DNA of 64,000 bases from Pseudomonadota bacterium (GCA_043821645.1 JBDRCO010000113.1:1-64000); one strand, 5' to 3'; counted from the first letter of the stretch, positions 1 to 63,417 are shown. A program made the numbers and translations. The notes: generated by a model not told the origin, from the sequence alone.

Positions 1-160
1 GCACGCGCTGAACCAGGCGAACGCCGTAGGGTCCGCGATCGCCGTAGGTCGCCGGGGCCAGGGCATCGGGTTCAAGCAGGATCTCGCCGGGCTCCGTGCA
101 GGCCCCGACGAGCACAGTGAGGACGAGGAGCCACACGCATCCCCGTGGCTTGCTGATCAT
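1..160 (-). CDS. Partial lipoprotein (N-terminus only; gene continues past the left window edge), possibly an alpha/beta hydrolase
   Basis: ATG at 160 overlaps the ABC stop (ATGA). Reads MISKPRGCVWLLVLTVLVGAC (lipobox) ...GPYGV. Not in the ORF track. Confidence 0.6.
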   Translation of the reverse strand, partial: MISKPRGCVWLLVLTVLVGACTEPGEILLEPDALAPATYGDRGPYGVRLVQRV

Positions 161-3821: not shown

Positions 3822-3922
3822 GAGCGGTCGCATCTTGTCAGCGTGGCCGAGCCACGGCAAGGTGGTCTGTCCGTGACGATATAGCGGTGCGCCCGGGCGG
3901 CGCACAGAGCGGAAGTGGAAGC

Positions 3923-4231
3923 ATGATCCTCGCCGAGTTCAGCATCGCACCCCTGGACGCCGGAGAGAGCCTGAGCGAGCAGGTGGCCGAGGCACTGGAC
4001 ATCGTGGACCGCAGCGGCGTGGCTTATCGCTTGAACCCCATGGGCACCGTGCTCGAGGGCGAGTGGTCCGAGGTGTTCGGGATCATCGAGCGCTGCTATC
4101 AGGCCATGCGTCAGCACAGCCGTCGTGTCTCCATCGCGATCAAGGTTGACGCCCGGGAGGGCGCAAGTGGTCGCCTGGACGCCAAGGTGGCAGCCGTGGA
4201 GCAGCGACTCGGCCGGGTGCTGAACAAGTAG
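3923..4231 (+). CDS. MTH1187/YqgV family thiamine-binding protein
   Basis: MILAEFSIAP...LNPMGTVLEGEW...RVSIAIKVDAR pattern, about 100 aa. Confidence 0.85.
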   Translation: MILAEFSIAPLDAGESLSEQVAEALDIVDRSGVAYRLNPMGTVLEGEWSEVFGIIERCYQAMRQHSRRVSIAIKVDAREGASGRLDAKVAAVEQRLGRVLNK

Positions 4232-4260
4232 GACAGTGAACGACGACCCAAGGAGCCCAC

Positions 4261-6354
4261 GTGGGATGGCTACCTTACGTCTACCAGTACGGCATAGGCG
4301 GACTACTGCTGCTGGTGGGACTGCTGTACGCCTGGCGACAGGGCGATGTGGGCCTGCGCGGCCGCGGCCTGCGAAATCTTGTGCTGGTTCTCGGCGGTCT
4401 CGCCTTCTTCATGCTGCTGCAGGGCTACTTGCAGTTCGTGGCGACGCGCGATCCGGAGCTGCCGCGCGGGCCGGCGGGTCCGGCCTGGACCGAGCACGGC
4501 GTGCTGGGCGCTCCCGTCGACTATGCCCTGATCGTACTGTACTTCATCGTCATCCTGGGTTTTGGCTCGCTGTTCGGACGCCACACCCGCACAACCCGCG
4601 ACTTCTTCTTTGGAGGGCAGCGGTTTTCCTGGTGGCTCATCGCCATGTCGCTGGTGGCCACCACCGTCGGCTCCTACAGCTTCATCAAGTACTCGCGCGT
4701 CGGTTTCGAGCACGGTTTCTCGTCGACACAGTCCTACCTCAACGACTGGTTCTGGGTGCCGCTGTTCCTGTTCGGCTGGCTGCCCATCATCTACTACTCG
4801 CGGGTGCGCTCGATCCCTGAGTACTTCGAGCGCCGCTTTGGCAGGGGTGCCCGTCACGTCGTCACCGCCCTGCTGCTGATCTACATGATTGGGTACATCG
4901 GCGTGAACTTCTACACCCTGGGCAAGGCCATGCACGGCCTGCTGGGCTGGGACGTGTTTTGGAGTGCCGCCCTGGTGGCCATGGTCTGTGCCATCTACGT
5001 CACTGCCGGAGGCCAGACCGCGGTCATCATGACGGACCTGGTGCAGGGGGTGCTGCTGCTGGTGGCCGGCGGCGTGCTGCTCTACCTGGGCATCGACAAC
5101 CTGGGAGGCTTTGACCAGTTCTGGGGCCACCTGCGCCCCGATCAGCGGGCAGCTTTTAGCAACTTCAACCAGGATCCCAAGTTCAACATGGTCGGCATCT
5201 TTTGGCAGGACGCCATCGCCAACAGTGCGACCTTCATCTTCTTGAACCAGGGCCTGATCATGCGCTTCCTCGCGGTCAAGAGTGTGCCCGAGGCACGCAA
5301 GGCGCTGGTCGTCACCATGATCGTGCTCATGCCCCTGGCGGCCATCGTGGTCGCGGGCGGCGGCTGGGTGGGCTCGGCCATGGTGCACGCCGGTCTGCTC
5401 GACCCGGCCACACCTCCAGACACCATCTTCGTGCGGGTGTCGTACGTGCTATGTCGGCCGGGCGTGTTCGGGCTGGTCATGGCGGCCCTGACCGCGGCTC
5501 TGATGTCGACAGCGGATACGTTGATCAACGCTGTGAGCGCGATCGTGGTCAACGACATCGTGCGTCCGTTCACGGCGGAGCGCCTGGACGATCAGGCCTA
5601 CCTGCGGGTGGCGCGCTGGACCTCGGTGGGGGTGTCCCTGGTGGGCCTGGCCCTGGTTCCCTTCTTCATGCAGTTCGACTCCATCTACGCGGCCCACGGA
5701 GCGTTCACCGCTGCGGTCACACCGCCCATGGTGGTGGCGGTGATCCTGGGCGTGTTCTGGCGCCGCTACACCGGCACGGCAGCACTGTGGACCATGGCAG
5801 GCGGCGCCGCCCTGATCGCGCTGTCCTTCGTCGTACCCGACGTCATCGCTCCCTTTGCCCACGGTATCCCGCGCGGTGGCGAGTACCACACAGCCTGGGT
5901 GTTCCCGCGGGCCCTGTACGGACTGGTGGTGTCGACACTGCTCGGGGTGGTCGCCACCGCGTTCACGCAGCCCGAGGCTGGACGCGACCTGGGCGGGCTG
6001 GTCTGGGGTTCCATTGGCCAGGCCATGCAGCGATTCAAGGGGAGCACGGGTCGGGAGCGAAGCGCACGCGGTCGCCTGGTGTCGGCCAGAGGCGGTCTGC
6101 CCCTGCAGCTCGCCGGTCCCATGGATCTTCCGCTGTGCCGGCTCACCGCCGCGCTCATGCAGAGTCTCGAGGTGGCCGAGGGCGATCTTGTCTACGTTGC
6201 GGACAGGCGGCGCTGGCTCGGCGGCCTGCGCTCGGCGCACATGGTGGTGGGGCCTGTCGTCGAGGGGGAGGGTGAGCTTGTGCTGCTCCCCGATGCCATC
6301 CACGCCGAAGTCGGCGCGAAGAGCGGTCGCGCCCGGATCGAGGCCATCCTGTGA
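4261..6354 (+). CDS. Sodium:solute symporter (SSS) with an extra N-terminal 2-TM module and a C-terminal soluble tail
   Basis: DFFFGGQRFSWW, SIPEYFERRFG, GGQTAVIMTDLVQ, AALMSTAD motifs; AGGAG RBS before GTG. Confidence 0.9.
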   Translation: MGWLPYVYQYGIGGLLLLVGLLYAWRQGDVGLRGRGLRNLVLVLGGLAFFMLLQGYLQFVATRDPELPRGPAGPAWTEHGVLGAPVDYALIVLYFIVILGFGSLFGRHTRTTRDFFFGGQRFSWWLIAMSLVATTVGSYSFIKYSRVGFEHGFSSTQSYLNDWFWVPLFLFGWLPIIYYSRVRSIPEYFERRFGRGARHVVTALLLIYMIGYIGVNFYTLGKAMHGLLGWDVFWSAALVAMVCAIYVTAGGQTAVIMTDLVQGVLLLVAGGVLLYLGIDNLGGFDQFWGHLRPDQRAAFSNFNQDPKFNMVGIFWQDAIANSATFIFLNQGLIMRFLAVKSVPEARKALVVTMIVLMPLAAIVVAGGGWVGSAMVHAGLLDPATPPDTIFVRVSYVLCRPGVFGLVMAALTAALMSTADTLINAVSAIVVNDIVRPFTAERLDDQAYLRVARWTSVGVSLVGLALVPFFMQFDSIYAAHGAFTAAVTPPMVVAVILGVFWRRYTGTAALWTMAGGAALIALSFVVPDVIAPFAHGIPRGGEYHTAWVFPRALYGLVVSTLLGVVATAFTQPEAGRDLGGLVWGSIGQAMQRFKGSTGRERSARGRLVSARGGLPLQLAGPMDLPLCRLTAALMQSLEVAEGDLVYVADRRRWLGGLRSAHMVVGPVVEGEGELVLLPDAIHAEVGAKSGRARIEAIL

Positions 6355-6355
6355 C

Positions 6356-9310
6356 TCAATACAGCTGGTACACGATGATGTAATCGAAGGTGGCGCTCAC
6401 CCCTCTGACGGAGATCCCCGCGTCACCCGAGCTTGGCCCGCCGGTGTCCGTGAAGTTGGTCGTCCCATAGCCCCCGTTGCAGCTCAGGGCGGTGCCATTG
6501 GCCGTAAAAATCACGGTCGAGGTCTGGGTCGGCGGGATCGCGTTGAGCCTCGTGCTCTCGGAGGCGTTGCTGAGCGCAGAATCGAGGCTGTACCAGGCCG
6601 TCACCGGCGTGATCTGAACCTGCTGTGACGCGCTCTGGTTCTCGTCGTGACGCATGCAGCCGCGGCCGGTGCCGGTGGTTCCCGTGCGCGCGATCAGGCC
6701 CACCCACTTCTTGTTGCCGGTCACCGCGGTGACGTTCATGCGCGACTCGACGCGCAGGTTGGGGAGATTGAGGGACTGGTCGAAGATGTAGCCATTCGCG
6801 GCGATCGTGGCCCCGGCCTTGTCACCAGCGACCGTGAAGGTTCCGCCCACGGTCCAGTTGCTCTTCAAGGCCGTCCCGCCAAAGCCGTCGAAGCGCGCGA
6901 TGGTGTCCTTGGAGCCAGGTCGTGGATCGCAGGCATCTCCCACCGTGTCGCCCGTGGCGGAATCCGCGTTGGCCTGGGTGTCATTGTCGACGTGCGGGCA
7001 GTTGTCACAGGCGTCGCCGCGCTGATCCCCATCCTCGTTGTGCTGGTCCGCGTTGGCGACAAGGGGACAGTTGTCGGAGACGTCGTTGACCCCGTCGTTG
7101 TCGGTGTCGAAGTCACAGACATCGCCCACGCCGTCGCCATCGAGGTCTTCCTGACCGGGGTTGCTGGTGGTGGGGCAATTGTCGAGCGTGCAGGTGTTGG
7201 CGGCGTAGCCCGGATTGCCGAAGCCGTCGTTGTCGGTGTCGGTGCAGGTATCGCAGGCGTCCCCCGTCGCATCGCCGTCGGCGTTTGCCTGGCTGGAGTT
7301 GGAGACGCCGGGACAGTTGTCGCAGGCATCGCCCCGCGAATCACCGTCGCCATTGTCCTGCGAGGTATTGGGGATGCCCACGCAGTTGTCGCAGGCGTCG
7401 CCCACCGTGTCGCCGTCGCCGTCGGTCTGGCTGGCGTTGCTCGTCGTGGGGCAGTTGTCGAGCGGGCAGGTGCTGGCGGCATAGCCAGGGTTGCCGTACC
7501 CGTCGTTGTCGGTATCCGTGCAGGTGTCACAGGCATCGCCCGTGGCGTCACCATCCGCGTTGGCTTGCGAGGCGTTGCTCACGCCAGGGCAGTTGTCGCA
7601 GGCATCACCCTTGCCGTCGCCATCTCCGTCCGTCTGGCTAGCGTTGGAGACATTGGGGCAGTTATCACACACGTCCCCCTTGCCGTCGTTGTCGGCATCG
7701 GTCTGGCTCTGGTTGGTGAGCCCCGGGCAATTGTCACAGGCATCGCCCAGGGTGTCGCCGTCGCCGTTGACCTGTGAGCTGTTGGAGACGCTCGGGCAGT
7801 TGTCGGTGGCCTTCTCGGTGAACTGGTAACCGCTGGGAGGGCTGCTGCCCACGCACTGGTCTCCCGCGCTGCCCGTAGTCCAGGTGTCGTTGTCGGCGTC
7901 GGTGAACAGTGCGCGTGTGACGAAGAGAGCGGCGTTGTCATCGTTGCAGTCATCGGGGCTCGTCTGGGACCCCCAGTAACCACTGGGTATCCCACCATCG
8001 GTGCACAGGACAAGGGCGTTCCCGATGGTGTAGTGGTCGCCGTCGCCGTCGACAAAGGCCGTGACGTTGCTGTGCTCGCTGGCGAGGCTGTCGTTGCAGT
8101 CGTCGTCGGTGGACGCGGTGGCTGCGTAGCCCTGAGGAGGCGTGCCGTCGCTGCACACCCTGACCGGACCACCCGAGGTGTAGGTGTCACCATCACCATC
8201 GACAAAGGCGCTGATCTCGACCCAGGCCCCCATATCCTGGTCGTCGCAGTCTTCCGTGCTCGAGGCCGTGGCGGCAAAACCCGTGGGTGGGGTGAGCGAA
8301 CACACCGCCACCGTGCCGCCGACAGTCCAGGTATCGCCGTCCGCATCGACGTAGACGTCGATGGTGTCGTGCAAGGACGCGTCGCCGTCGTCGCAGTCCT
8401 CGGTCGAGGAGGCCACAGCCGCATGCCCCGCGGGAACACCACCGTCGCTGCACACCCAGACCGCAGCGCCGATCGTGAAGGTGTCGCTGTCGCCGTCGAC
8501 GAAGACGTTCATGCCCGCGTGCCGGAGATTGTCGCCGTCGTCACAGTCATCGCTCGCCGAGGCCGAGGCCGCGTAACCAGAGGGCAGGACGCTGGCACAG
8601 ACCCGGGTCTCGGGGCCGAGGGTCCAGGTGTCATTGTCCGCATCGACGAAGGCCACCAGCCCGTCAGCAACGCTCGCGCTGTCGTCGTCACAGTCCGGGA
8701 AGACAGAGGCCACGGCCAGGTAACCCGCCGGGAGGTTACCCCCGGTGCACAGCTCGATCGCGCCGCCGATCGAGAGCCCGTCGCGATCGCCATCCATGAA
8801 GCCGCTGAGCAGAGTATGCAGGGCGCCATCGTCCGGGTTGCAGTCCGGCCCGGCCGGGCAGCCGGGGCCGTGCAGATCCTCGTCGAGGTCGATGCATCCT
8901 GCGTCTTCAAGCCCGACGTCCTCGACCGAGGCATCCTCGGCCGCGTCGATGGTGGCGAGATCATATCCACTGCGGTCGGTGACGATCCTGTCCTGAAGGC
9001 CTGCATCGAGGCCATCCGCATCGCGCTCTATGAGATCTGCCCCCGTGGTGTCGACCGACGCAGCGTCCGCAACGGCCACCGGCACGCAGAAGCCATTCTG
9101 GCAGTCGTGCCTCAAGGGGCAGTCCAGATCTGCGGTGCGGCAGCGCGTGAGTTCGTCTTCCGGAACGCAGGCGTCTTGGACGCACTGGTAGCCCTCGGCG
9201 CAGGAATGGGCCTGGTTGCATCGGTAGCCGACGAGTTCGACCTCGATGCACCCCGACAGCGCGATGAGGATCGCGCTCGCGACGGGCCACAGACCAAGTG
9301 ACTTGCGCAT
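6356..9310 (-). CDS. Large Asp/Cys-rich surface lipoprotein with thrombospondin type-3 and DCDD metal-binding repeats
   Basis: Lipobox LSGC; many DNCP..N..Q.D.DGD..GDACD units and several DxDxD...C...DCDD units. Confidence 0.88.
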   Translation of the reverse strand: MRKSLGLWPVASAILIALSGCIEVELVGYRCNQAHSCAEGYQCVQDACVPEDELTRCRTADLDCPLRHDCQNGFCVPVAVADAASVDTTGADLIERDADGLDAGLQDRIVTDRSGYDLATIDAAEDASVEDVGLEDAGCIDLDEDLHGPGCPAGPDCNPDDGALHTLLSGFMDGDRDGLSIGGAIELCTGGNLPAGYLAVASVFPDCDDDSASVADGLVAFVDADNDTWTLGPETRVCASVLPSGYAASASASDDCDDGDNLRHAGMNVFVDGDSDTFTIGAAVWVCSDGGVPAGHAAVASSTEDCDDGDASLHDTIDVYVDADGDTWTVGGTVAVCSLTPPTGFAATASSTEDCDDQDMGAWVEISAFVDGDGDTYTSGGPVRVCSDGTPPQGYAATASTDDDCNDSLASEHSNVTAFVDGDGDHYTIGNALVLCTDGGIPSGYWGSQTSPDDCNDDNAALFVTRALFTDADNDTWTTGSAGDQCVGSSPPSGYQFTEKATDNCPSVSNSSQVNGDGDTLGDACDNCPGLTNQSQTDADNDGKGDVCDNCPNVSNASQTDGDGDGKGDACDNCPGVSNASQANADGDATGDACDTCTDTDNDGYGNPGYAASTCPLDNCPTTSNASQTDGDGDTVGDACDNCVGIPNTSQDNGDGDSRGDACDNCPGVSNSSQANADGDATGDACDTCTDTDNDGFGNPGYAANTCTLDNCPTTSNPGQEDLDGDGVGDVCDFDTDNDGVNDVSDNCPLVANADQHNEDGDQRGDACDNCPHVDNDTQANADSATGDTVGDACDPRPGSKDTIARFDGFGGTALKSNWTVGGTFTVAGDKAGATIAANGYIFDQSLNLPNLRVESRMNVTAVTGNKKWVGLIARTGTTGTGRGCMRHDENQSASQQVQITPVTAWYSLDSALSNASESTRLNAIPPTQTSTVIFTANGTALSCNGGYGTTNFTDTGGPSSGDAGISVRGVSATFDYIIVYQLY

Positions 9311-9406: not shown

Positions 9407-11971
9407 ATGGATGGACCAGGTATCCCACCCCCGCCGGCCCAAAAGTTTCCAATCCCCGTTTCTCAAGCAATAATAATGGGACAGGGAGACCAGCAACACG
9501 TGGTTCGCGAACCAAACAAGCCCGTCGACGAAGACGATGAGTTCGGGGAGGAGGATGCGCCGACCATTCGTGTCGACGCCCTGGACCCCGCTGAACTCTC
9601 TGTCCTGCTGTCCGGGGATGTTCAGCTCATCGAAGTCGAAGAGGATGCCGACGCCACCAGGGTAGCTCCAACCGTCTTTCCGGAGCCACCGCCCGCCGAT
9701 CCAGAGCCGCCGTCCCGAGGACCACGTCTCGGCCGCTACTCGCTGCGCAAGAGACTCGGCGTTGGGGGCATGGCCGAGGTGTTTCTGGCAGAGCAAGATG
9801 GGCCGGCCGGTTTCCGGAAGCAGGTTGTGGTCAAGCGCATCCTGCCGCAGCTCACGGCTTCACCCAAATTCGTCGAGCTGTTCCTGCGCGAGGCACGGCT
9901 GGCCGCCACGCTCAATCACAGCAACATCGTCCAGATCTACGAACTCGGCGAGGATGAGGGTCAGTACTTCATTGCCATGGAGTACGTCGACGGTGCCACG
10001 CTGCACCAGCTGGCCAAGATCTGCTGGCATTTTCACAGGCCGCTCCCTTTCGAGCTGGTGATAGGTCCCGCCGCCGATGCAGCGCTGGGACTGCACTACG
10101 CACACCACCTGCTCGACGAGGCAGGCGAGCCAGCGGGCCTGGTACACCGTGACATCAGCCCCGACAACTTGATGCTCAACCGCGAGGGCATCACCAAGAT
10201 CCTGGACTTCGGGGTGGCCAAGGGTCTCGCCGCTGCCGCCGGTAGCAACACCCGCGTGGGCGAACTCAAGGGCAAGATCCCCTTCATGGCGCCCGAGGTC
10301 ATCCGCGGAGCCCAGATCGACGGCCGCGTGGACCTGTACGCGCTGGGCGTCTGCATGTACTGGCTACTGACCGGGCACCGGCCACACATCGGTGACAACG
10401 ATGCTGATCTGCTGGATTCGGTGCTCAAGAAAGAACCTGCATCACCGCGATCGCTCAATCCCACGGTGCCGATCGAGCTGGACGCGCTGGTGATGTGCTT
10501 GCTGCAAAAAGACCGCGACAAACGCCCCCCCAACGGCGAAGTCCTGCACGATTTGCTGGTCCAGATCCTGCCGGTACAACACCGGCTGACCGCGCCCTTC
10601 GTGCGTCAGATCCTTGGCTGGGGCTCGGAGATCGCAGCCGGCATACCCCCTGGCGAGCGGCCGCGCACCTTCATCCCGGCGGGTCCCGCCTCCCTGTATC
10701 AAAACGGGGCACCGGGAATCCCTGGTGTCGGTGCCCTCATGGGACCGGTGCCGACACCGAGCTCTCTGTCGGTGAGCCCGACCTCGGACCTGCAACGGCT
10801 TTTGGAAACCGCGGAGATGATGGCGGCCAAGCCTGACCCCGAGGTCACCCGCCCCGCACAGCCGAGGGTCGACATCGATTCCGAGCTCAATTCGCAAGTC
10901 CTGGCCGAAGCGGGGATTTCTCTGGATGAACTGGCATCGGATGCAGCGGCCGGCGCCTCCGCGAGTCAAGAACCGTCGCAGGACATCGGGGCGCTGCTGG
11001 CGGATACCCTGGACGAACTCGGCGGGCCCACCCGTACGGGCATGCAGATCAATCCTGTGAGCTTCGAAGAGGCAGCCCCGGCGCCCCCGCCCGTGATCGA
11101 TTCCGCCGATTCCACCGTCGCCTGGAGCATGTCTGAAGAGATACGGCGACCCCGGGCCTGGTTTGCACTCGGGACCTTCCTGGGCTTGCTGGTCGTGCTG
11201 GGCGCCTGGCTGATCAGGGAATGGGACAGGCCGCCCGAGACCCCATCCACTGTCGACGAAAGACCCGGGAACACGGTCCCGGTGGCTGGAGCGACCGAGG
11301 ACAGCGGGACCCTGCTGGTGCAGACCCCGCAGGGAGTCATCGAATTCGATCCGGACCAGCTTGGCGCTGGTGGCGACGACAACACAGGCGCCGGTGTGGA
11401 TGGAGGCTCGCCAGCTCGTGGGGACAGCGGGTCCGCGACAAGCGTGGCGTCCGCGCACACACAGGACGCCGCAGCGGAGCCCACGGCCGACAACCCGCCG
11501 GGACAGGACGACGCCCGGGCTGACCGGCACCTGCAACCCGAGCCCCGAGAACCTCGCTCGCCGCGACCGAGCCAGCGCATCCAGCAGGTTCGTGCTCCCA
11601 GGCACGTGCAGTGGCTCAGCGACAAGCAGCGAGGGCTTGGTCGGGGCACGGACAGGCTGTCCCTGTCCAAGAATGCCCGCCATGTCTATGCCTACGATAC
11701 CCGGCGCCAGGTCATGACCCGCGTGTCTGTCGAGGACGGCGTGATCGACTACGGCAAGCTGCCCCGAGGATCCCTGGCCGTGCGGGCCTTCCCCTTCGCG
11801 GTGGTTTCGCTGGGCAAGGACAAGATCGGGACCACACCCTTCGCGCCGCTCGACGTCGTGGTCGGCACCTACAAGGTGACGCTGCAGCACGAGCAGACGA
11901 CCAAGGTGATCACGGTTGAGGTGCGCTCGGGCCAGACCGCGCTTGTCAAGGCCAACATGACGGAACCCTGA
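9407..11971 (+). CDS. Eukaryote-like Ser/Thr protein kinase (Pkn type) with TM segment and C-terminal PEGA-like region
   Basis: GVGGMAEV, VVVKRIL, HRDISPDN, DFG, APE. Start uncertain (9407 or 9476). Confidence 0.92.
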   Translation: MDGPGIPPPPAQKFPIPVSQAIIMGQGDQQHVVREPNKPVDEDDEFGEEDAPTIRVDALDPAELSVLLSGDVQLIEVEEDADATRVAPTVFPEPPPADPEPPSRGPRLGRYSLRKRLGVGGMAEVFLAEQDGPAGFRKQVVVKRILPQLTASPKFVELFLREARLAATLNHSNIVQIYELGEDEGQYFIAMEYVDGATLHQLAKICWHFHRPLPFELVIGPAADAALGLHYAHHLLDEAGEPAGLVHRDISPDNLMLNREGITKILDFGVAKGLAAAAGSNTRVGELKGKIPFMAPEVIRGAQIDGRVDLYALGVCMYWLLTGHRPHIGDNDADLLDSVLKKEPASPRSLNPTVPIELDALVMCLLQKDRDKRPPNGEVLHDLLVQILPVQHRLTAPFVRQILGWGSEIAAGIPPGERPRTFIPAGPASLYQNGAPGIPGVGALMGPVPTPSSLSVSPTSDLQRLLETAEMMAAKPDPEVTRPAQPRVDIDSELNSQVLAEAGISLDELASDAAAGASASQEPSQDIGALLADTLDELGGPTRTGMQINPVSFEEAAPAPPPVIDSADSTVAWSMSEEIRRPRAWFALGTFLGLLVVLGAWLIREWDRPPETPSTVDERPGNTVPVAGATEDSGTLLVQTPQGVIEFDPDQLGAGGDDNTGAGVDGGSPARGDSGSATSVASAHTQDAAAEPTADNPPGQDDARADRHLQPEPREPRSPRPSQRIQQVRAPRHVQWLSDKQRGLGRGTDRLSLSKNARHVYAYDTRRQVMTRVSVEDGVIDYGKLPRGSLAVRAFPFAVVSLGKDKIGTTPFAPLDVVVGTYKVTLQHEQTTKVITVEVRSGQTALVKANMTEP

Positions 11972-11985
11972 GCCCGGCCAGGCGA

Positions 11986-12687
11986 TCAGTCCGTCGTCAC
12001 CACGTCCACAGTAGCCAGGACAGTGCCGACACCGAACAGCACTGCGCCGATGCCGTAGCAGATCGAGGCTCCGGTCATCCAGGTGTTGGCGCTGTCGAGG
12101 GAGGCTTGTGCCTCGTCCTGGAACCGACCCTGATCCACGGCCGCGGTGAGGTTCGTGAAAGCGAGACCGCTGAGGACGGCCCCCCCAAGGACAGAGGCAG
12201 CTCCCAGCGCTGCCGCGCCAGCCCCGCCGATGAACAGGGCGGACAGTCCGGGGCTCTTCTGAGACTCGCCAGCCACGGAGGCCGTCGAGCTATCTGACCC
12301 GCCTGTCGCATCGCCGGTGTCTGTGGTTGAGCTGCTCTCTTTCGCGACGGCGCTTGTCTCCCTGGCCTTGGCCTGCAGCTTCGCGAACAACCCGTTGATC
12401 TTGGGAGAGGCCTGTACCGGAAGCTTGAGGTCCGGATCAAGCTCCAGACCCCGCACAAAGCTTTGCTCGGCCTTGGACATGTCACCGATGCCGGCGTGAC
12501 ACATTCCAACCCAGGCGTGAAGAAGACTCTGCTCCGATGACGGTCTGTTCTCGGCCACCAGCGCCACAAATTGCTCGAGCGCCGCCTCGTACTCGAGCTC
12601 CGTGTAGAGCTTCTGAGCTTGCTGAAAGCGCGGTTCGTCCGCCACGGAGGCGAGCAAAAAAGTCCCAAGCAGAGCAGTGGTCAGCAT
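11986..12687 (-). CDS. Secreted or membrane TPR protein
   Basis: Signal peptide, TPR-like helices (AEQSFVRGLELDP), C-terminal hydrophobic segments. Confidence 0.7.
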   Translation of the reverse strand: MLTTALLGTFLLASVADEPRFQQAQKLYTELEYEAALEQFVALVAENRPSSEQSLLHAWVGMCHAGIGDMSKAEQSFVRGLELDPDLKLPVQASPKINGLFAKLQAKARETSAVAKESSSTTDTGDATGGSDSSTASVAGESQKSPGLSALFIGGAGAAALGAASVLGGAVLSGLAFTNLTAAVDQGRFQDEAQASLDSANTWMTGASICYGIGAVLFGVGTVLATVDVVTTD

Positions 12688-56378: not shown

Positions 56379-57719
56379 TCAAGATGACGCTCCTCGCCGT
56401 CGGGACGGAGCGTCGCGAAAGGCGCTGGGACGCAGGTCCCAGGGCAGCAGACGGAGCACGATGGGCAGCAGCAAGGCCCCGCCGGGGAGTGCAAACAGGG
56501 CCAAGGACGGGACCGCGCGGACGATATCCAGCAACTGCTCCCGCACGCGGGCGCGCTCGCTGTCGTCCAGGCTGTGCCCGCCAGCAGCCCGGGTCAGCAA
56601 GGTCGCAAGCTCCCCGGTCTGGCGGATCTCCGTGACCAGGGCGTCGAGGTTGCGCTGAACCAGGCCCACCACTCGCTTCTGAACCAGGCCACCAAGCCGG
56701 CCGTAATACTGCGTCTCGGTGAACAGATCGAACAGGTCGCGGTGCGCTTCAACGAAGCGCCGCACGCGGACCTCGATACGGCGGAGCTGCAGATCCGGGA
56801 CCTCGAGCTGGGCGGCCAGCTGATCGACGAAGCGACGCTCGTCACGATCGATGTGGCCATCGATGACCGCGGCCAGGAGCACCTGTTCGAGCAGGTAGCC
56901 CACGGAGCGTCGACCCTCGACCATGTCCGCGACCTGTGATGCCGTCAGAGGCTGCTCGAGCAAGCGCTTCAACGCGCGCACCTGGCCACGTGAGAAACCG
57001 CAGCCACCGAGCTGACCGGCAGCCATGCGCCTGGCTTCGGGAGGCAGTCCCTGCCCTCCCGCCACCAGGGCACCCAGGGAGGCCACCAGCATGTAGCGTT
57101 CGCGCTGAAAGAAAGCCCTCAGCTTGCTCAACACCTCGAGATCGACACCGCCACTTGCAGCCACCGCCAGCGTGATGCGCCCGACCAGGCGCGCGTCGCT
57201 GTAAAGCAAGCCGTTGCGCAGGGGCAAGCCGAGCAGAGGGTTGCCCACGGCGTACTGGCGCGCTGCCAGCATACTCTCGAGGGTGGAGCGGATGCGGGTG
57301 AGCTGGCGCCGCGTCAAGGAATGTCCCTGGCAAACCTGGAACAGCTGCACGGCCATCGCGTCCTGCTCGACCAGCAGTGCCAGGCAGCACAGCAACCAGG
57401 CCTCAACCTGCTCGGTGCGCACGCGACTGGACGAGACAGCCTCGATCTCGATGATGAGGTCGCACCAGATCGCCAGGAAGGGCTCGAAGGCTTCTTTCCA
57501 GGCTCCGGACTCCACCGCGTTGAGGAGTTCAGGGCGGGCCAGGGGCAGCCCGTAGGCCACGCCACGGCGATGCAGGCTCCAGAAGATCCAGCGCTTGGCA
57601 GCCCCCTTGCGGTCCGTCGTCCAGGGTCGCAGGATGCGCCCTACCCTCCACTCGACGGCGGCAACGTCGTGCGCACCAACATAGCGCTGGAGGAATCTCT
57701 CGAGCCATCCGCGCTGCAT
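56379..57719 (-). CDS. TerB-like / LETM1-related protein
   Basis: IDGHIDRDERRF (TerB-like); EQLLDIVRAVPSLALFALPGG.LLLP...PSAF (LETM1-like C-terminus). Confidence 0.65.
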   Translation of the reverse strand: MQRGWLERFLQRYVGAHDVAAVEWRVGRILRPWTTDRKGAAKRWIFWSLHRRGVAYGLPLARPELLNAVESGAWKEAFEPFLAIWCDLIIEIEAVSSSRVRTEQVEAWLLCCLALLVEQDAMAVQLFQVCQGHSLTRRQLTRIRSTLESMLAARQYAVGNPLLGLPLRNGLLYSDARLVGRITLAVAASGGVDLEVLSKLRAFFQRERYMLVASLGALVAGGQGLPPEARRMAAGQLGGCGFSRGQVRALKRLLEQPLTASQVADMVEGRRSVGYLLEQVLLAAVIDGHIDRDERRFVDQLAAQLEVPDLQLRRIEVRVRRFVEAHRDLFDLFTETQYYGRLGGLVQKRVVGLVQRNLDALVTEIRQTGELATLLTRAAGGHSLDDSERARVREQLLDIVRAVPSLALFALPGGALLLPIVLRLLPWDLRPSAFRDAPSRRRGASS

Positions 57720-57943
57720 CGTCGAGCGCCTCGCTTAAGGGAACCGGTCGTGCCACCCGCAGCCCGTCGAACAGGGTCCCGGCGACAGAGACCGCAGGAA
57801 GCAGGGCTCGGCGCGGTGGCACGCCCACGTCGAGCGGCCACCTCCGAACCTCGCGACCATAGCGCAGCCGGTCAAAGTCGGCGAGTCACATCGCAGCCCA
57901 GCAGGTGCTTGACCAGCCACGAGGCAGGGCGAAAGATGACGCG

Positions 57944-59779
57944 ATGACAGGACGGTCACTCGTCATGCGCCTGGCGCTGACCGCGGGAGCGGTGATCCTG
58001 CTCCTGCTGGTGCTGGCTGCCATCGTGCTGTGGCCCCTGCAGCGGCGCGCCGTGGAACCCATGGTGCGGGCGCACCTCCGGACCCTGACCGACAGAGTTG
58101 CGGCAAGCTACGACAGCTTCGACGAGGCCTCCCGTCTGCACCCCGTGGGCGACCTTCTCCTCGACGTGACCAGGCTGGACTTCGTGGTCGGTGCTCTGAT
58201 CCAGACTGCCAGCGGCACCGCGTCGCACCGCAGCGGCGAGATCCCTGCCGAGGGGAAGCGCTGGATCCATCTGCAACGTCCCTTGCCTCGCCGCGCCGGC
58301 TGCGCCCGTTGCCACCGCGAGCCCATCGAGTCGCTGGGCAGTGTGTTGCTGGTCGGGGACCTGGAGCGCGCCGCGGCACCCGTGCTCGACGCGCACCGGG
58401 TCTCGATGCTGGTCCTCGCCTTCGTGGTCCTGGGCGCGCTGCTCATCGTGGCCGTGGCGGCGCGACGTCTGATCACGCGACCGCTGTTACAGCTGGTTGA
58501 CACCATGAGCCGGGCCAAGGAGGGCGACTTCCTGGTGCGAGCCCCGACCGATCGTGACGACGAGATCGGGCACGTCGCCCGGACCTTCAACACCATGCTC
58601 GCCGCGATCACCGATCTGCAAGCCTCGCGCATCGAGCAGGCCCAGGACCTGGCCGTCGCCCAGCATGAACTCGCACTTCGCCAGCAGCTCGAGGAACGCA
58701 ATCGGGTCATCGCCGAGACCAACGCCAGCCTGCAGCGCAAGGTGGACGAGCTGACCCTGCTCACGGATCTGACCCGGGCCGTGACCTCGACCCTGGAGCT
58801 GAAAGCCGTACTAGATGAGGTGTGCCGGCGCGCCGGGACCTTCATGGGTGTCGACGAGGCCGTGGCATTGCTCAACGAAGATCAGCGGCAACGCGTGCGC
58901 GTGATCTCGATGCACGGGGTCCCTGCCTCGGTGGACCTGCGGGACCTGACCTTCAAGCACGGCGACGGAATCACCGGCCGTGTGGCTCTCTCCGGACGCA
59001 CCATCCTGGTCAGGGATACCACCGCGGACCCGCGCTACTTGCACTACAAGGGGCAGCGTCCCGTCGACGGGTCCTTCCTCTCCGTGCCCATGCTGGCCAA
59101 GGGCCGGGTGCTCGGAGTGCTCGACTTCTTCCGGGCTCAGGTCGACGCCTTTGATGAACGATCCATCACCTTGCTCACCGCGGTGGCCGGCCAGGCCGCC
59201 CTCGCGGTGGAAAACGCTCGGCTGTACCAGATGCAGACTGAGCTGGCCCTGACCGATGCCCTGACCAGCCTGCACAACAGGCGGGCGCTGGATCAGCGCC
59301 TCGAAGACGAGGTGCACCGCGCGTCGCGCTTTGGCAATGCCCTGTCCGCCCTGATGATCGACGTCGATCACTTCAAGGATTTCAATGACCAGCACGGGCA
59401 TCTGGTGGGTGACCTCGTGCTGCGCCAGGTGGCGCGCGTGCTGCGACGGCAAGTGCGGAAGGTCGACACCATTGCGCGCTTCGGCGGCGAGGAATTCTGC
59501 GTGCTGCTGGTGCGGACCCCGCTGGCTGATGCCCTCGACGTGGCCGAGAAGCTTCGCCAGACCGTCGCCGACAGGCGTTTCTCCAGGCTTCGCCGGGACG
59601 CCAAGCTCCAGGTCACGGTCAGCATTGGTGTGGCCGAACTCGGCGCCGAGATGAGAGGCCCCCAGGAACTCCTGGATGCGGCCGACGGCGCGCTCTATGA
59701 CGCCAAGCACGGCGGACGCAACCGCGTCTGCGTGTGGCAGGGTGCGGCCGGTGCCTCGACGACGATTCCCCAGAAGTGA
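57944..59779 (+). CDS. Membrane diguanylate cyclase (periplasmic CxxCH, HAMP, GAF, GGEEF)
   Basis: CARCH between TM segments; HAMP; GAF; DVDHFK.FND.HGH, RKVD I-site, GGEEF. Confidence 0.92.
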   Translation: MTGRSLVMRLALTAGAVILLLLVLAAIVLWPLQRRAVEPMVRAHLRTLTDRVAASYDSFDEASRLHPVGDLLLDVTRLDFVVGALIQTASGTASHRSGEIPAEGKRWIHLQRPLPRRAGCARCHREPIESLGSVLLVGDLERAAAPVLDAHRVSMLVLAFVVLGALLIVAVAARRLITRPLLQLVDTMSRAKEGDFLVRAPTDRDDEIGHVARTFNTMLAAITDLQASRIEQAQDLAVAQHELALRQQLEERNRVIAETNASLQRKVDELTLLTDLTRAVTSTLELKAVLDEVCRRAGTFMGVDEAVALLNEDQRQRVRVISMHGVPASVDLRDLTFKHGDGITGRVALSGRTILVRDTTADPRYLHYKGQRPVDGSFLSVPMLAKGRVLGVLDFFRAQVDAFDERSITLLTAVAGQAALAVENARLYQMQTELALTDALTSLHNRRALDQRLEDEVHRASRFGNALSALMIDVDHFKDFNDQHGHLVGDLVLRQVARVLRRQVRKVDTIARFGGEEFCVLLVRTPLADALDVAEKLRQTVADRRFSRLRRDAKLQVTVSIGVAELGAEMRGPQELLDAADGALYDAKHGGRNRVCVWQGAAGASTTIPQK

Positions 59780-59787
59780 CGGGATGC

Positions 59788-60756
59788 TCAGGATGTGGTG
59801 GCCGCGTCCGTCCCGCGACGGAAGGAGTCCGGCACACACAGAACCTGCTGACTCCTGAGCACGCGGACCGCCTGTCCGCAGTTGCTCCCGATCTGGTCCT
59901 CGCGAGGGTCTCCGACGCTGAGGATCACGTCAAAGCCGCCCGCCCGCAGGCGCTGCACCGCCACATCGACCTGGTCCCGTGCCCCAGCTCGCAGCACCGT
60001 GTGCAGCGCATGCGCATCGCCGCGGGCCGTCGGGTTGAGCGGTGTGAGCTTGATCGTGAAGAGGAGGGGATCGAAGCGGCACAGCAGGACCGCGGGATCG
60101 AAGGGCACACCCTCGGCGAGGGCAAAGTTGAGCACGACGCGACGATCCCCCGCCACGACGAAGCGCTCGCCGTAGTCCGCGATGGCGTCGGGACCCCAGT
60201 GCGGCACCGGGATGAGTTGACGTCGCAGCGCGTCATCGGTGGTGTTGAGCGAGAACTGGAGCTGGAAACGCCCGCGGTACAACGCCCGCTTGACGTCGAG
60301 AAGTGCATCGAAGAAGCGCTCCTGCCCTCGCGGAGCCACGGTCGCCAGGCAGGCCCACAGGCCCGGGCTTTGCACCACCTGCGGCAGCTGCCACAGGGCC
60401 TCGATGACGGCGTCGTTGTAGGCCGGCTCCCCCATGCGCGCGAAGTGGATTTTGAGCTTGCGACAGCTCGCCGCCTGGTCCGGGTGCTGCGACAGCACCC
60501 AGCGCACCTGGGCCAGCAGCTCGGCTGCACTGAGGTGACCCTGAAAGTCGCCACCCGCGTCGCAGTAAGGGCAGCCGACGGGGCAGCCGATCTGGGTCGA
60601 GATGTTGACGATCCACTTGTCGAGCCGAGGCCGTGGCGGATCGAGTCCATCCACCATCTCGACGAGCAGGCGCGGGTCCTGGCGTAACCTGGCCACATGC
60701 ACCACCGCGACCTCGGGCATCCCGTGGCTGCCCACCACCTCGAGGAGCTCACTCAT
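59788..60756 (-). CDS. RlmN/Cfr-related radical SAM protein (atypical)
   Basis: STQIGCPVGCPYC, RMGEP, SNCGQ. Confidence 0.85.
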   Translation of the reverse strand: MSELLEVVGSHGMPEVAVVHVARLRQDPRLLVEMVDGLDPPRPRLDKWIVNISTQIGCPVGCPYCDAGGDFQGHLSAAELLAQVRWVLSQHPDQAASCRKLKIHFARMGEPAYNDAVIEALWQLPQVVQSPGLWACLATVAPRGQERFFDALLDVKRALYRGRFQLQFSLNTTDDALRRQLIPVPHWGPDAIADYGERFVVAGDRRVVLNFALAEGVPFDPAVLLCRFDPLLFTIKLTPLNPTARGDAHALHTVLRAGARDQVDVAVQRLRAGGFDVILSVGDPREDQIGSNCGQAVRVLRSQQVLCVPDSFRRGTDAATTS

Positions 60757-61667
60757 GCGCGCCCACCTCCTCCGATCCGTGTCGCAAGATAACCGTGTGC
60801 CAGGCAGGCGGCGTGCACACCATCGCCGAGAGCGGGTGCGATGTAGCGCTGGCTGTCCCGGGTCAGGTCACCGGCAAGATACAGCCCAGGCACGGGCTGC
60901 AGACGCTGCAGAGGTCGATCCCCGGGCAGCCCTAGCCCCCGCAGCAGCTGGGTCTCGGGTTCGCGCCCGATGCAGGCGACGACGTGGGCGACTTCGACCT
61001 GTGTGCGGGGCGCGGCCTCCCCACCAAGAATGGCAAGCAGGCCCTCGCGGGTGGGCTCGCAGCGGCGGGCGGTCAGCCCCGGCCAGATCTCGACGCCAGA
61101 CGCCCGTGCTTCATGCAGCAGGGCTGGACGAGCGCGGAATCGGTCCCCTCGCAGCGCGACAGCCACGCGAGCGCCTCGGTCCGCCAGGGACAGCGCCGTA
61201 TCCAGGGCGACCTCGCCACCTCCGAGCACCAGGATCCGCTTGCCTTCCGGGAGATCCAGCAAGGTGCGCAGATCGCGGTGTGCGAGCCCGCGTTCGGTGC
61301 AACGATCCCAGCCCTCGACGTCGACAGTCCGTGGTCGAGTGCCACTGGCCAGCACCACGGCGTGAGCGACGATGGTGCCGTGATCCTGCTCGGCAACGAA
61401 CTCCTGGTCGCGGCGCGTGAGGGAGCGGACACGGCCCGCGATGGACGTGATGCCAGCCTGCCCGAGCTGTGTCTGCAGCCGCTGCCCCAGACCGATGCCA
61501 CTGATACGAGGCAAGCCCGGAAGGTTGTCGATGCGCCTGGCCGCCCGGGCAAGTCCTCCCGCGGGTTCATCCGCGACCAGGGTGATCTCGATTCCGAGGG
61601 CCGCGGCCTGTAGTGCCGCCGCCACGCCCGCGGGTCCCGCGCCGATGACGAGCAGGGCGGTTCGCAT
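60753..61667 (-). CDS. NAD(P)/FAD-dependent oxidoreductase, TrxR fold without CxxC
   Basis: IGAGPAG, NLPG, LASG, GGGEVALD, GLYLAGD; ATG at 61667. Confidence 0.85.
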   Translation of the reverse strand: MRTALLVIGAGPAGVAAALQAAALGIEITLVADEPAGGLARAARRIDNLPGLPRISGIGLGQRLQTQLGQAGITSIAGRVRSLTRRDQEFVAEQDHGTIVAHAVVLASGTRPRTVDVEGWDRCTERGLAHRDLRTLLDLPEGKRILVLGGGEVALDTALSLADRGARVAVALRGDRFRARPALLHEARASGVEIWPGLTARRCEPTREGLLAILGGEAAPRTQVEVAHVVACIGREPETQLLRGLGLPGDRPLQRLQPVPGLYLAGDLTRDSQRYIAPALGDGVHAACLAHGYLATRIGGGGRA

Positions 61668-62323
61668 CAGTGCTGCCACCCCCAGGCGTCGAGGATCTCG
61701 TCGACGGTGGCGACGTGCGCGTGCCCAGCTGCCAGCGTCTGCAGCGCGGCCAGGTGCTGCTGCGCGCTGCGGGCTGCGGTGGCGTCGATGCTGACCACGG
61801 GGACCAGGCCGACCTGTGAGGCGTCCAGGGCACTGGCGGCGATGCACAGAGGAGTCTGCACGCCCGCGAGCACTAGCGCATCGCAGCCGTCGAGGAGCGC
61901 GGGCAGTTCGGCGGCGCTGAAGATGCTGTGTCGGCACTTGTCGACGACGGGGCCTGTGGACCAGAGATCCTCGAGCGCCGGATCCAGGGCAGCCAGGACC
62001 TCACCCGCGCGAGGCAAGCGGTCGAAGAAGCGCCCCATCAGACCCCCCACGTCGTCGTCGGGATGCACGTGGCGCGTGAAGATCACTGGACACGTGGCCC
62101 TGCGAAAAGCCGCGACCAGAGCCCGCAGCGGCAGGACACAGGCAGGCCAGTCCGGCAGGGCGGCAGGACTCGCGGGGTCGCAAAACAAGCGCTGCAGGTC
62201 CACCACCACGAGCGCGGGCCGATGCAGATCGTCAAAAGTTCGGCGTCCCCGCAGTGGTGCCAGCGCATGCAGGACCCCGGATATCCCGGCGGCGGCATGC
62301 ATCGGACGGACCCCATCCGTCAC
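61667..62323 (-). CDS. Isochorismatase-family cysteine hydrolase
   Basis: VVDLQ (Asp), VDKCRHS (Lys), GVQTPLC (Cys) triad. Confidence 0.88.
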   Translation of the reverse strand: MTDGVRPMHAAAGISGVLHALAPLRGRRTFDDLHRPALVVVDLQRLFCDPASPAALPDWPACVLPLRALVAAFRRATCPVIFTRHVHPDDDVGGLMGRFFDRLPRAGEVLAALDPALEDLWSTGPVVDKCRHSIFSAAELPALLDGCDALVLAGVQTPLCIAASALDASQVGLVPVVSIDATAARSAQQHLAALQTLAAGHAHVATVDEILDAWGWQH

Positions 62324-63417
62324 CGCACACCTCCTGTGGTCGTGGGGACGCGAATGCTCCGGCCGTCGACGGCACGCAAGGTCCAGGCATCCTCATCGCG
62401 CGCGATCACACGTCCGGGGTGCAGGCGCACCTTGCCTCCGGCCTCGGGGAGGTCGACCACCAGATCGGGCAAGGCCAACCCAGATACGCGGTCACGCAGT
62501 GTCTCGATGAGCGCCATGGCGCGCTCGAGCGGCACCCGGACATGTGCGCTGCCGCTCACCAGATCACACTGGTGCAGGTAATAGGGGACCACGCGCTGCT
62601 GCAACAGGGCTCTAAAAAGGTTCTCAAGGACCTGGGCGTCGTCGTTGATCCCGCGCAGCAGCACGGTCTGGCTCAGTACAGGCACTCCGGCGTTCACCAA
62701 TCGACCCAGAGCGCCCGCCACCTCCGCATCCAGTTCCACAGCATGGTTGATATGCACGAGCACAAACAGAGGCTGCGCCCGCCTGAGCACACCGACCAGA
62801 CGCGCCGTGATACGCCTCGGCACGAACACCGGCAGCCGCGTGCCGAGCCGGATCACCTCGACGTGACGCAGGGTCCGCAGCTCTCGCAGCAGCAGCTCGA
62901 GACGACGGTCGTCGAGCATGAGCGGATCGCCCCCGGACAGGATGACCTCCCGGATCTCATCGTGGGCATGCAGGTACTCGAGGGCCGCATCGAGACGGGG
63001 TGGCGGCGTACCCGCCAGCCGCGCACGCGTGCAGAAACGGCAATAGGCCGCACACGTGCCGGTGACGAGGAGCAGGGCCCGATCAGGATAGCGGTGCACC
63101 AGCCCGGGCACGGGCATGTGCTGCAGCTCGGCCAGGGGATCCCCGTGCTCCCCTTCTGCCACCGCGAGTTCCGCCATGCGCGGGATGAGCTGCCGGCGCA
63201 GGGGATGGTCGCGATCGGCCCGGGGCAGGTGGCGCAGCACATGGGGGGTCAGCGCCAGCGCGCGGGCTCCATGCAAGCTCCGTATCGCCGCGCGCTCGTC
63301 ATCATCGAGATCGAGGTGCCGCTCCAGACCCGCCAGGTCGGTGACCACGCGGGCGAGTTCCCGCTGCCAGGGGGACGGAGGGGTGCGGCGATGACTCCGG
63401 CGAAGGGCGCTGTGCAC
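62320..63417 (-). CDS. KamA-family radical SAM amino-acid 2,3-aminomutase
   Basis: HRYPDRAL, CAAYCRFC, SGGDPL, QTVLLRGIND, PYYLHQCD, GGK (PLP Lys). Confidence 0.9.
   Translation of the reverse strand: MHSALRRSHRRTPPSPWQRELARVVTDLAGLERHLDLDDDERAAIRSLHGARALALTPHVLRHLPRADRDHPLRRQLIPRMAELAVAEGEHGDPLAELQHMPVPGLVHRYPDRALLLVTGTCAAYCRFCTRARLAGTPPPRLDAALEYLHAHDEIREVILSGGDPLMLDDRRLELLLRELRTLRHVEVIRLGTRLPVFVPRRITARLVGVLRRAQPLFVLVHINHAVELDAEVAGALGRLVNAGVPVLSQTVLLRGINDDAQVLENLFRALLQQRVVPYYLHQCDLVSGSAHVRVPLERAMALIETLRDRVSGLALPDLVVDLPEAGGKVRLHPGRVIARDEDAWTLRAVDGRSIRVPTTTGGVR

Follow-up and report, generated by a model that had tools for sequence, protein, structure and literature searches.

A Widespread Three-Gene Cassette Built around an RlmN/Cfr-like Radical SAM Protein with a Single Conserved Non-Cluster Cysteine

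The minus strand of a 64,000-nucleotide stretch of DNA from a Pseudomonadota bacterium (GCA_043821645.1, JBDRCO010000113.1:1-64000; hereafter the window) encodes, at positions 59788 to 60756, a 322-amino acid protein that resembles the radical S-adenosylmethionine (SAM) enzymes RlmN and Cfr and has one conserved cysteine outside its iron-sulfur cluster motif. The genes for this protein, a flavoprotein and an isochorismatase-like hydrolase nearly always occur together and form a widespread three-enzyme module. As far as sequence comparison can tell, the cassette is real, widespread and uncharacterized; its key chemistry is a proposal. We tentatively propose, with a rough probability of 0.4, that the cassette encodes an enzyme of three components whose substrate is a small molecule and that the radical SAM protein is its catalytic core rather than a ribosomal RNA (rRNA) methylase.

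To our knowledge, a two-cysteine mechanism is the defining trait of class A radical SAM methylases, and all members characterized so far act on RNA. According to the passages of PMC9692996 that deal with RlmN, residue C355 is methylated by a first SAM, and the 5'-deoxyadenosine (5'-dA) radical produced from a second SAM turns the methylated residue into a Cys-S-CH2 radical, which adds to an sp2 carbon of the substrate. In the same passages C118 is the general base whose deprotonation triggers fragmentation of the cross-link, and the resulting cysteinyl radical, possibly stabilized by M176, is re-reduced by a source described as unidentified. Variants of RlmN at C118 remain cross-linked to RNA (titles of the PDB entries 5hr6 and 5hr7; PMC9692996, same passages). 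The corresponding account of Cfr in that source gives C338 as the methyl carrier and states that C105, the equivalent of C118, is required.

Results

Translation of the gene yields a CxxxCxxC motif (C58, C62 and C65; positions 60562 to 60585, minus strand), identified from the translation and its invariance as the ligands of the radical SAM [4Fe-4S] cluster, an MGEP motif at residues 108-111, and a C-terminal SNCGQ loop (59872 to 59886, minus strand) in which C293 aligns with the methyl-carrier cysteines of RlmN (C355) and Cfr (C338). The position of RlmN C118 is occupied by N51 (codon at 60604 to 60606, minus strand) in HMMER and MAFFT alignments. The direct translation of positions 60562-60612 of the minus strand, which includes N51 and the cluster motif, is IVNISTQIGCPVGCPYC. 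The three motifs and the Asn at the C118 position had been listed in a first-pass annotation of the gene, and the translation and both kinds of alignment bore them out. By alignment equivalence only, C293 stands at the position that holds the methyl-carrier cysteine in class A methylases.

Comparison with curated models gave weak scores throughout. The Pfam scan of the protein returned a Radical_SAM match below threshold (21.7 versus 29.5 bits) and found no RlmN_N domain. NCBIfam scores were below their cut-offs (PRK14464, 63.3 versus 422 bits; TIGR00048, 44.7 versus 290 bits), as were those of the Cfr models (TIGR04432, 21.4 versus 550 bits; NF000424, 25.6 versus 530 bits), and no model in Pfam, NCBIfam, PHROG or PADLOC names the protein. 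Among solved structures, the best sequence match was the RlmN-type enzyme 6fz6 (expectation value, E, 2.1e-11). In the HMMER alignments N51 pairs with the Cys of 'TTVCVSCQVGC' in 6fz6 and with the mutated Ala of the C118A RlmN chain 4pl1_B. An AlphaFold2 model was built from 120 homologues, with a predicted local distance difference test (pLDDT) of 94.4 and a predicted template modeling score (pTM) of 0.90. Its top Foldseek matches were the RlmN structures 5hr7, 4pl1, 3rfa and 6fz6 (E 3e-15 to 5e-14; template modeling (TM) scores 0.62-0.69), followed by Cfr 9p0p (E 1.6e-8), with TM scores of 0.58-0.69 over RlmN and Cfr as a whole; spore photoproduct lyase was among the distant matches (4rh0, E 5.9e-5; 4fhg). 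These results demonstrated that the protein has an RlmN/Cfr-type radical SAM fold that retains the MGEP Met and the mobile C-terminal Cys-Gly-Gln loop, and is without the N-terminal helical RNA-binding domain and the resolving Cys. Since translation, alignments and the AlphaFold2/Foldseek comparison all agree, the first-pass description of the protein was correct.

RlmN, the C2-methyltransferase of A2503 in 23S rRNA and A37 in transfer RNA (tRNA) (3rfa, 5hr7, 6fz6; TIGR00048), is the best fold match, with TM scores of 0.66-0.69, and shares with the cassette protein the CxxxCxxC motif, the MGEP Met, a β-strand extension before the barrel and the Cys-Gly-Gln loop. Identity between the two is about 20%, however, and the cassette family differs from RlmN in the absence of a Cys at the C118 position and of the N-terminal helical domain, in an acidic-to-neutral isoelectric point (pI), and in being nearly always partnered by the flavoprotein and the hydrolase. 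Cfr, the C8-methyltransferase of A2503 in 23S rRNA (9p0p; TIGR04432), belongs to the same fold class and follows the same Cys-loop principle, whereas the cassette family has no equivalent of C105, scores 21-26 bits against cut-offs of 530-550 bits and, unlike Cfr, showed no link to antibiotic resistance genes in the loci examined. The protein was filed as neither RlmN nor Cfr because it departs from that family in three defining traits: it has no resolving Cys and no N-terminal domain, and it scores below the curated cut-offs.

The source genome also carries three RlmN-type genes elsewhere (L081, 1498-2628, minus strand, contig C68; L082, 1492-2649, minus strand, contig C118; L083, 1363-2448, plus strand, contig C106). 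One of them encodes a canonical RlmN, which at 334.9 bits is the only one of the three above the RlmN cut-off (TIGR00048, 290 bits); the other two score 244 and 212 bits, and the cassette radical SAM gene 43 bits. All three proteins have the Cys pair of the C118 and C355 types. In a MAFFT alignment, N51 of the window protein sits under the Cys of 'ALCISTQ', 'TLCVSTQ' and 'SVCLSSQ', and C293 under the Cys of their AACGQ or AACGM loops. The paralogues have 60-100 additional N-terminal residues, which, together with the lack of an RlmN_N domain, confirmed that the N-terminal extension of RlmN, annotated as short or missing, is missing. Their pI values are 8.9-10.7, compared with a median of 6.1-6.6 for the cassette family and 6.4 for the window protein. 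Because a canonical RlmN and two paralogues, all with two cysteines, are encoded elsewhere in the genome, the cassette gene is not the housekeeping RlmN.

Conservation of the key residues was followed at two depths. Of 8000 candidates scored in a word-indexed protein search, 1837 proteins had E ≤ 0.001. The 119 top-ranking relatives besides the query share 52-66% identity with it (BLASTP), and in the resulting 120-sequence alignment N51, C58, C62, C65, C98, C136 and C293 are invariant. A wider sample came from a scan of one genome per species, which gave at least 585 stretches encoding a relative of the radical SAM protein; 80 of these were kept as loci, and 79 radical SAM sequences from them formed a diversity set. 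By their labels, the 80 loci belong to Myxococcota, Elusimicrobiota, Chloroflexota, Acidobacteriota/Aminicenantes, Planctomycetota, WOR-3, Zixibacteria, Fermentibacteria and several archaeal lineages. In the diversity set, the only cysteines conserved across the family are C58, C62, C65 and C293, all present in 79/79, and the last is conserved along with G294 and Q295. Position 51 is N in 24 members, M in 22, I in 22, L in seven and T in four, and is never Cys. Chance does not account for this pattern. Asn51, invariant among the 120 near homologues, is thus a feature of its clade rather than a catalytic residue. As the family-wide cysteines are limited to the cluster ligands and C293, no conserved Cys can replace C118, and the suggestion that another Cys might substitute at that position found no support. 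C98 and C136 were considered as substitute resolving cysteines and rejected at the family level, being clade-specific (Cys in 26/79 and 36/79 diverse members, respectively).

Other residues distinguish the family from RlmN. Among the polar residues invariant in the family and different in the three RlmN paralogues of the genome are D66, K102, R107, Q165, Q167, K236 and E286; D66 directly follows the third cluster Cys. E33 is likewise invariant in the family but common to RlmN too. M108, the Met of the MGEP motif, is invariant in the alignment with the RlmN paralogues and at least 90% conserved in larger family alignments.

The family is large and its distribution patchy. In an exhaustive hidden Markov model (HMM) search of 1.84 billion cluster representatives (50% identity), 195 clusters had E ≤ 1e-30, 1969 had E ≤ 1e-10 and 6103 had E ≤ 0.001. 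The gene was present in one of four genomes of the window's own class. Among 201 genomes of another class, 61 had a full-length copy and seven more only fragments, two of these with internal stops. Split or internal-stop copies (G150:C6:1027575-1028391, one TGA; G188:C48:9230-9547, two TAA) suggest, as far as sequence goes, that the cassette is decaying in some genomes.

In the window, the radical SAM gene is the last of a compact series of genes on the minus strand. The flavoprotein (60753 to 61667; 304 amino acids; Pyr_redox_2, E 7.9e-30) resembles thioredoxin reductase, with a flavin adenine dinucleotide (FAD)/NAD(P)H architecture and without the redox CxxC. The hydrolase (61667 to 62323; 218 amino acids from the longest open reading frame (ORF) start; PF00857, E 2.2e-29) is an isochorismatase-like cysteine hydrolase with an Asp-Lys-Cys triad. 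The first gene of the local operon (62320 to 63417) encodes a radical SAM aminomutase of the KamA family (TIGR00238, 297 bits versus a cut-off of 199). The stop of the flavoprotein gene overlaps the start of the radical SAM gene by 4 bp, its start and the stop of the hydrolase gene have one base in common (TGATG), and the longest hydrolase ORF overlaps the KamA stop by 4 bp. KamA was nonetheless rejected as a cassette member, an adjoining homologue being found by tblastn in 0/80 loci.

The two partners were compared with their homologues. The flavoprotein scores 122.8 bits against the TRX_reduct cut-off of 343, and no conserved Cys and no CxxC were found among 58 homologues. Its R263 is conserved and, judged by eye, falls within the stretch that binds NAD(P)H in thioredoxin reductase. 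The hydrolase triad, D42, K129 and C160, is invariant in 54/54 sequences; the solved structures closest to the hydrolase are those of a cysteine hydrolase and of N-carbamoylsarcosine amidases.

In 58 of the 80 loci tblastn detected the flavoprotein adjoining the radical SAM gene, and in 56 it detected the hydrolase there. A Pfam scan of 98 flanking ORFs added a Pyr_redox_2 protein immediately upstream in nine loci and a hydrolase in one; several of the partnerless loci have the radical SAM gene at their very edge, so that the presence of partners cannot be assessed there. In 16 loci, mostly labeled Elusimicrobia, the hydrolase gene follows the radical SAM gene. In 20 further loci of another class at least one partner was present in every case; by tblastn, 13 had the order hydrolase-flavoprotein-radical SAM, four the flavoprotein only and three the hydrolase only. 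All-against-all clustering of the ORFs of the 80 loci revealed no further conserved neighbor beyond the three genes. PADLOC gave no matches for the four operon proteins, and a role as a defense system was set aside. Literature searches gave no description of a radical SAM-flavoprotein-hydrolase cassette.

Gene fusions join the same components. In L034 a single ORF of 512 amino acids joins the radical SAM part to an isochorismatase domain behind it (residues 329-503), and the same radical SAM::hydrolase form recurs in a 58-member Atlas cluster. P0121 (617 amino acids) and P0122 (648 amino acids) are complete flavoprotein::radical SAM fusions and were the only longer fused forms given by the word-based searches. 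The exhaustive HMM search gave more, with matches of 503-544 and 553-625 amino acids that, judged by length and match position only, fit both fusion types.

Relatives were also found outside the cassette. A scan of viral_contigs found no relative; short RlmN-like proteins encoded by phage genomes resemble the cassette family more closely than RlmN does. The protein of Bacteroides phage Versailles (L085, 5965-6972, plus strand; 29% identity, E 7e-33) keeps the loop Cys only, its position 51 being Thr and its loop TCGN. Salmonella phage Arash gp133 (L086, 5887-6816, plus strand) keeps both RlmN cysteines, one at position 51 and one in a CGQ loop, and its N-terminal domain is missing. Both proteins belong to phrog_24834 and occur without the flavoprotein and the hydrolase. 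In the exhaustive HMM search a sister clade of the cassette family appeared at E 1e-35 to 1e-51. Its members P0232 (814 amino acids) and P0236 (820 amino acids) combine an N-terminal QueT transporter domain, an RlmN-like domain and a C-terminal methylthioadenosine/S-adenosylhomocysteine (MTA/SAH) nucleosidase domain, the last scoring 223.9 bits in P0232 against a cut-off of 169, and P0206 (586 amino acids) is a fusion of QueT and the radical SAM part. In this clade position 51 is T, M or L, not Cys, and the loop Cys is kept (CCGQ, TCGN, TCGK). Because the sister clade also shows it, the single-Cys state is older and wider than the cassette. To judge from their domains, the QueT/nucleosidase fusions are candidates for a queuosine-precursor processing enzyme, and at least this branch is physically tied to the import of small compounds of the 7-deazapurine type and to the removal of SAM by-products.

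The genes around the cassette were searched for leads to its function. In five Elusimicrobia loci coaC-coaB-coaX-panD precede the cassette; an alternative pantoate route was considered and rejected, PanB and PanC being encoded elsewhere in 4/5 of these genomes. In L071 a complete bioB-bioF-bioH-like-bioC-bioD-bioA operon (144-7951, plus strand) runs into the cassette; since the operon is complete, bioB included, the idea of a replacement for biotin synthase was also rejected. Two 302-amino acid ORFs without a family match follow the cassette in L071, and then two adjacent adenosine deaminase genes (9816-12260, minus strand). In L058 pyrK lies upstream and pyrD downstream of the cassette. Genes for Ham1 and adenine phosphoribosyltransferase (apt) are near it in L123 and L128, and an Ogt gene in L133. 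An [FeFe]-hydrogenase with a NuoE-like protein is encoded nearby in L121, an Nuo51/RnfC-like protein in L026, and a 4Fe-4S dicluster-domain Fe-S protein, followed by a CCG-domain ORF, in L035. Queuosine salvage in place of de novo synthesis was considered as well. A hand tally in one class (201 genomes) found QueC in 51/61 genomes with the cassette and in 119/140 others, and, QueC being equally frequent with and without the cassette, there was no sign of a role in queuosine salvage.

Some neighboring features stand apart from these leads. In three low-GC genomes of one class, the next gene after the cassette on its strand is a DUF192 (COG1430) gene (L124, 9846-10301, plus strand; L125, 7197-7634, minus strand; L127, 7776-8288, minus strand). 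Rfam gathering scans of L001-L075 matched tRNAs and two riboswitches, a cobalamin riboswitch (L037, 10545-10725, minus strand) and a thiamine pyrophosphate (TPP) riboswitch (L034, 11114-11226, plus strand), both several kb downstream and unlinked to the cassette. In the window, a HAMP-GAF-GGDEF diguanylate cyclase of 624 amino acids (57905-59779, plus strand) is convergent with the radical SAM gene, the stop codons being 8 bp apart. Beyond it, a 446-amino acid protein (56379-57719, minus strand) has a C-terminal match to a LETM1-related biofilm-associated family (118.7 bits, under the cut-off of 250) and a weak DUF533 match.

Discussion

In the reaction that we propose, the first half would proceed as in class A methylases. 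SAM would methylate C293, and the 5'-dA radical would convert the product to a Cys-S-CH2 radical, which would then add to an sp2 carbon. Instead of RNA, the enzyme would act on a small and probably anionic metabolite; a base of the purine, deazapurine or pyrimidine type is our best guess. A family-specific acidic residue, D66 or E286, would take over the deprotonation carried out by C118 in RlmN. The flavoprotein would feed NAD(P)H electrons to the [4Fe-4S] cluster and perhaps re-reduce the C293 radical, and the hydrolase would work, either ahead of the radical step or following it, on an amide or ureido group carried by the same metabolite. The near-neutral or acidic pI and the absent RlmN_N domain speak against an RNA substrate, and the fusion of the sister clade to QueT and MTA/SAH nucleosidase favors a small molecule. 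The nucleobase-related genes near the cassette in separate lineages, and the electron-transfer genes near it in others, are in line with the proposal. The first-pass annotation had inferred a different substrate or different chemistry. The former has gained indirect support from the genome's own RlmN and its paralogues, the partner genes and fusions, the pI, the occurrence in archaea and the QueT/nucleosidase-fused sister clade.

Several points weigh against this proposal. Methyl transfer and the methylation of C293 are proposed from motif equivalence, and the roles of D66 and E286 from conservation. A net-acidic protein can still bind RNA, and the target of the flavoprotein might be the substrate instead of the cluster. 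Flanking genes vary from locus to locus and include the coa-panD genes and the biotin operon; the nucleobase-related neighbors amount to a handful among about 100 loci and could be due to chance. No riboswitch was found upstream of the cassette in the Rfam scans of L001-L075. A more specific version of the proposal, which we regard as improbable, has the flavoprotein, not a second Cys, resolving a C293-methylene adduct at an sp2 carbon of a free nucleobase-like metabolite by delivering a hydride or an electron to the exocyclic methylene, with the hydrolase trimming an amide or ureido group of that metabolite. If true, such a flavin-resolved C-methylation or methylene transfer would be the radical SAM counterpart of ThyX and TrmFO.

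The cassette might instead not methylate at all. C293 could be the H-atom donor or thiyl site of a small-molecule radical lyase, reductase or isomerase, an explanation that is the main rival and that we hold to be plausible, if less likely than the proposal above. It has several observations on its side. A second conserved Cys is missing from the family, from the Versailles phage relative and from the QueT-fused clade, Arash gp133 being the one that keeps both, and an NAD(P)H flavoprotein partner fits a net redox change. Spore photoproduct lyase, a radical SAM enzyme with a single catalytic Cys as H-atom donor, is among the Foldseek matches (4rh0); it is a mechanistic analogue from a different subfamily that acts on DNA and has neither a Cys-Gly-Gln loop nor flavoprotein or hydrolase partners. 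The sister clade, fused to a queuosine-precursor transporter domain, also recalls QueL, which the relevant passages of PMC11130926 and PMC12632869 describe as a radical SAM queuine lyase that converts queuine to preQ1 and whose gene adjoins a QueT/QrtT transporter gene. A C-N or C-C cleavage like the one ascribed to QueL might be followed in the cassette by finishing of the product by the hydrolase, while the flavoprotein supplies or removes electrons. The likeness to QueL is a lead from gene context, however, and no queuosine genes were seen near the cassette in the loci whose flanks were examined; the QueC tally points the same way. The Cys-Gly-Gln loop and the MGEP Met, moreover, are the methyl- and radical-carrying elements of RlmN and Cfr, and the MTA/SAH nucleosidase fused in the sister clade would clear both SAH and 5'-dA, in keeping with two uses of SAM.

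We give very little credence to the view that the protein is an RNA C-methyltransferase that acts on another target in tRNA or rRNA and receives its resolving group in trans, for example from the nucleophilic Cys of the hydrolase. RlmN and Cfr are its closest characterized relatives by sequence and fold, C160 of the hydrolase is invariant, and in one phylum the hydrolase is fused directly behind the Cys loop. Yet the protein has no RNA-binding N-terminal domain and an acidic-to-neutral pI, a canonical RlmN is already present in the genome, some members and the phage relatives do without the hydrolase, and so patchy a distribution (1/4 genomes in one class and about 61-68/201 in the other) is atypical for a core RNA modification. 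It is hardly credible that the protein is sacrificial, turning over only once, or that it forms a stable covalent Cys-CH2-substrate adduct. The annotation had listed a stable adduct among its options, and the cross-linked C118 variants of RlmN are a precedent (5hr6 and 5hr7 titles; PMC9692996, passages on RlmN). A stable adduct as the normal function is unlikely because the family is conserved in hundreds of species, where the full catalytic set and two dedicated partners are kept, and the by-product nucleosidase to which the sister clade is fused speaks for repeated turnover.

Conclusions

The proteins described here make up a large, phylogenetically broad branch that has kept the methyl-carrier loop, dropped the resolving Cys and the RNA-binding domain, and gained redox and hydrolase partners. 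The sister clade fused to QueT and the nucleosidase offers an experimental entry through small-molecule nucleobase chemistry. The identity of the substrate would show either how a cross-link is resolved without a second Cys or that the Cys loop now serves a different radical chemistry, and would give a function to a cassette that is common in uncultured anaerobes and archaea.

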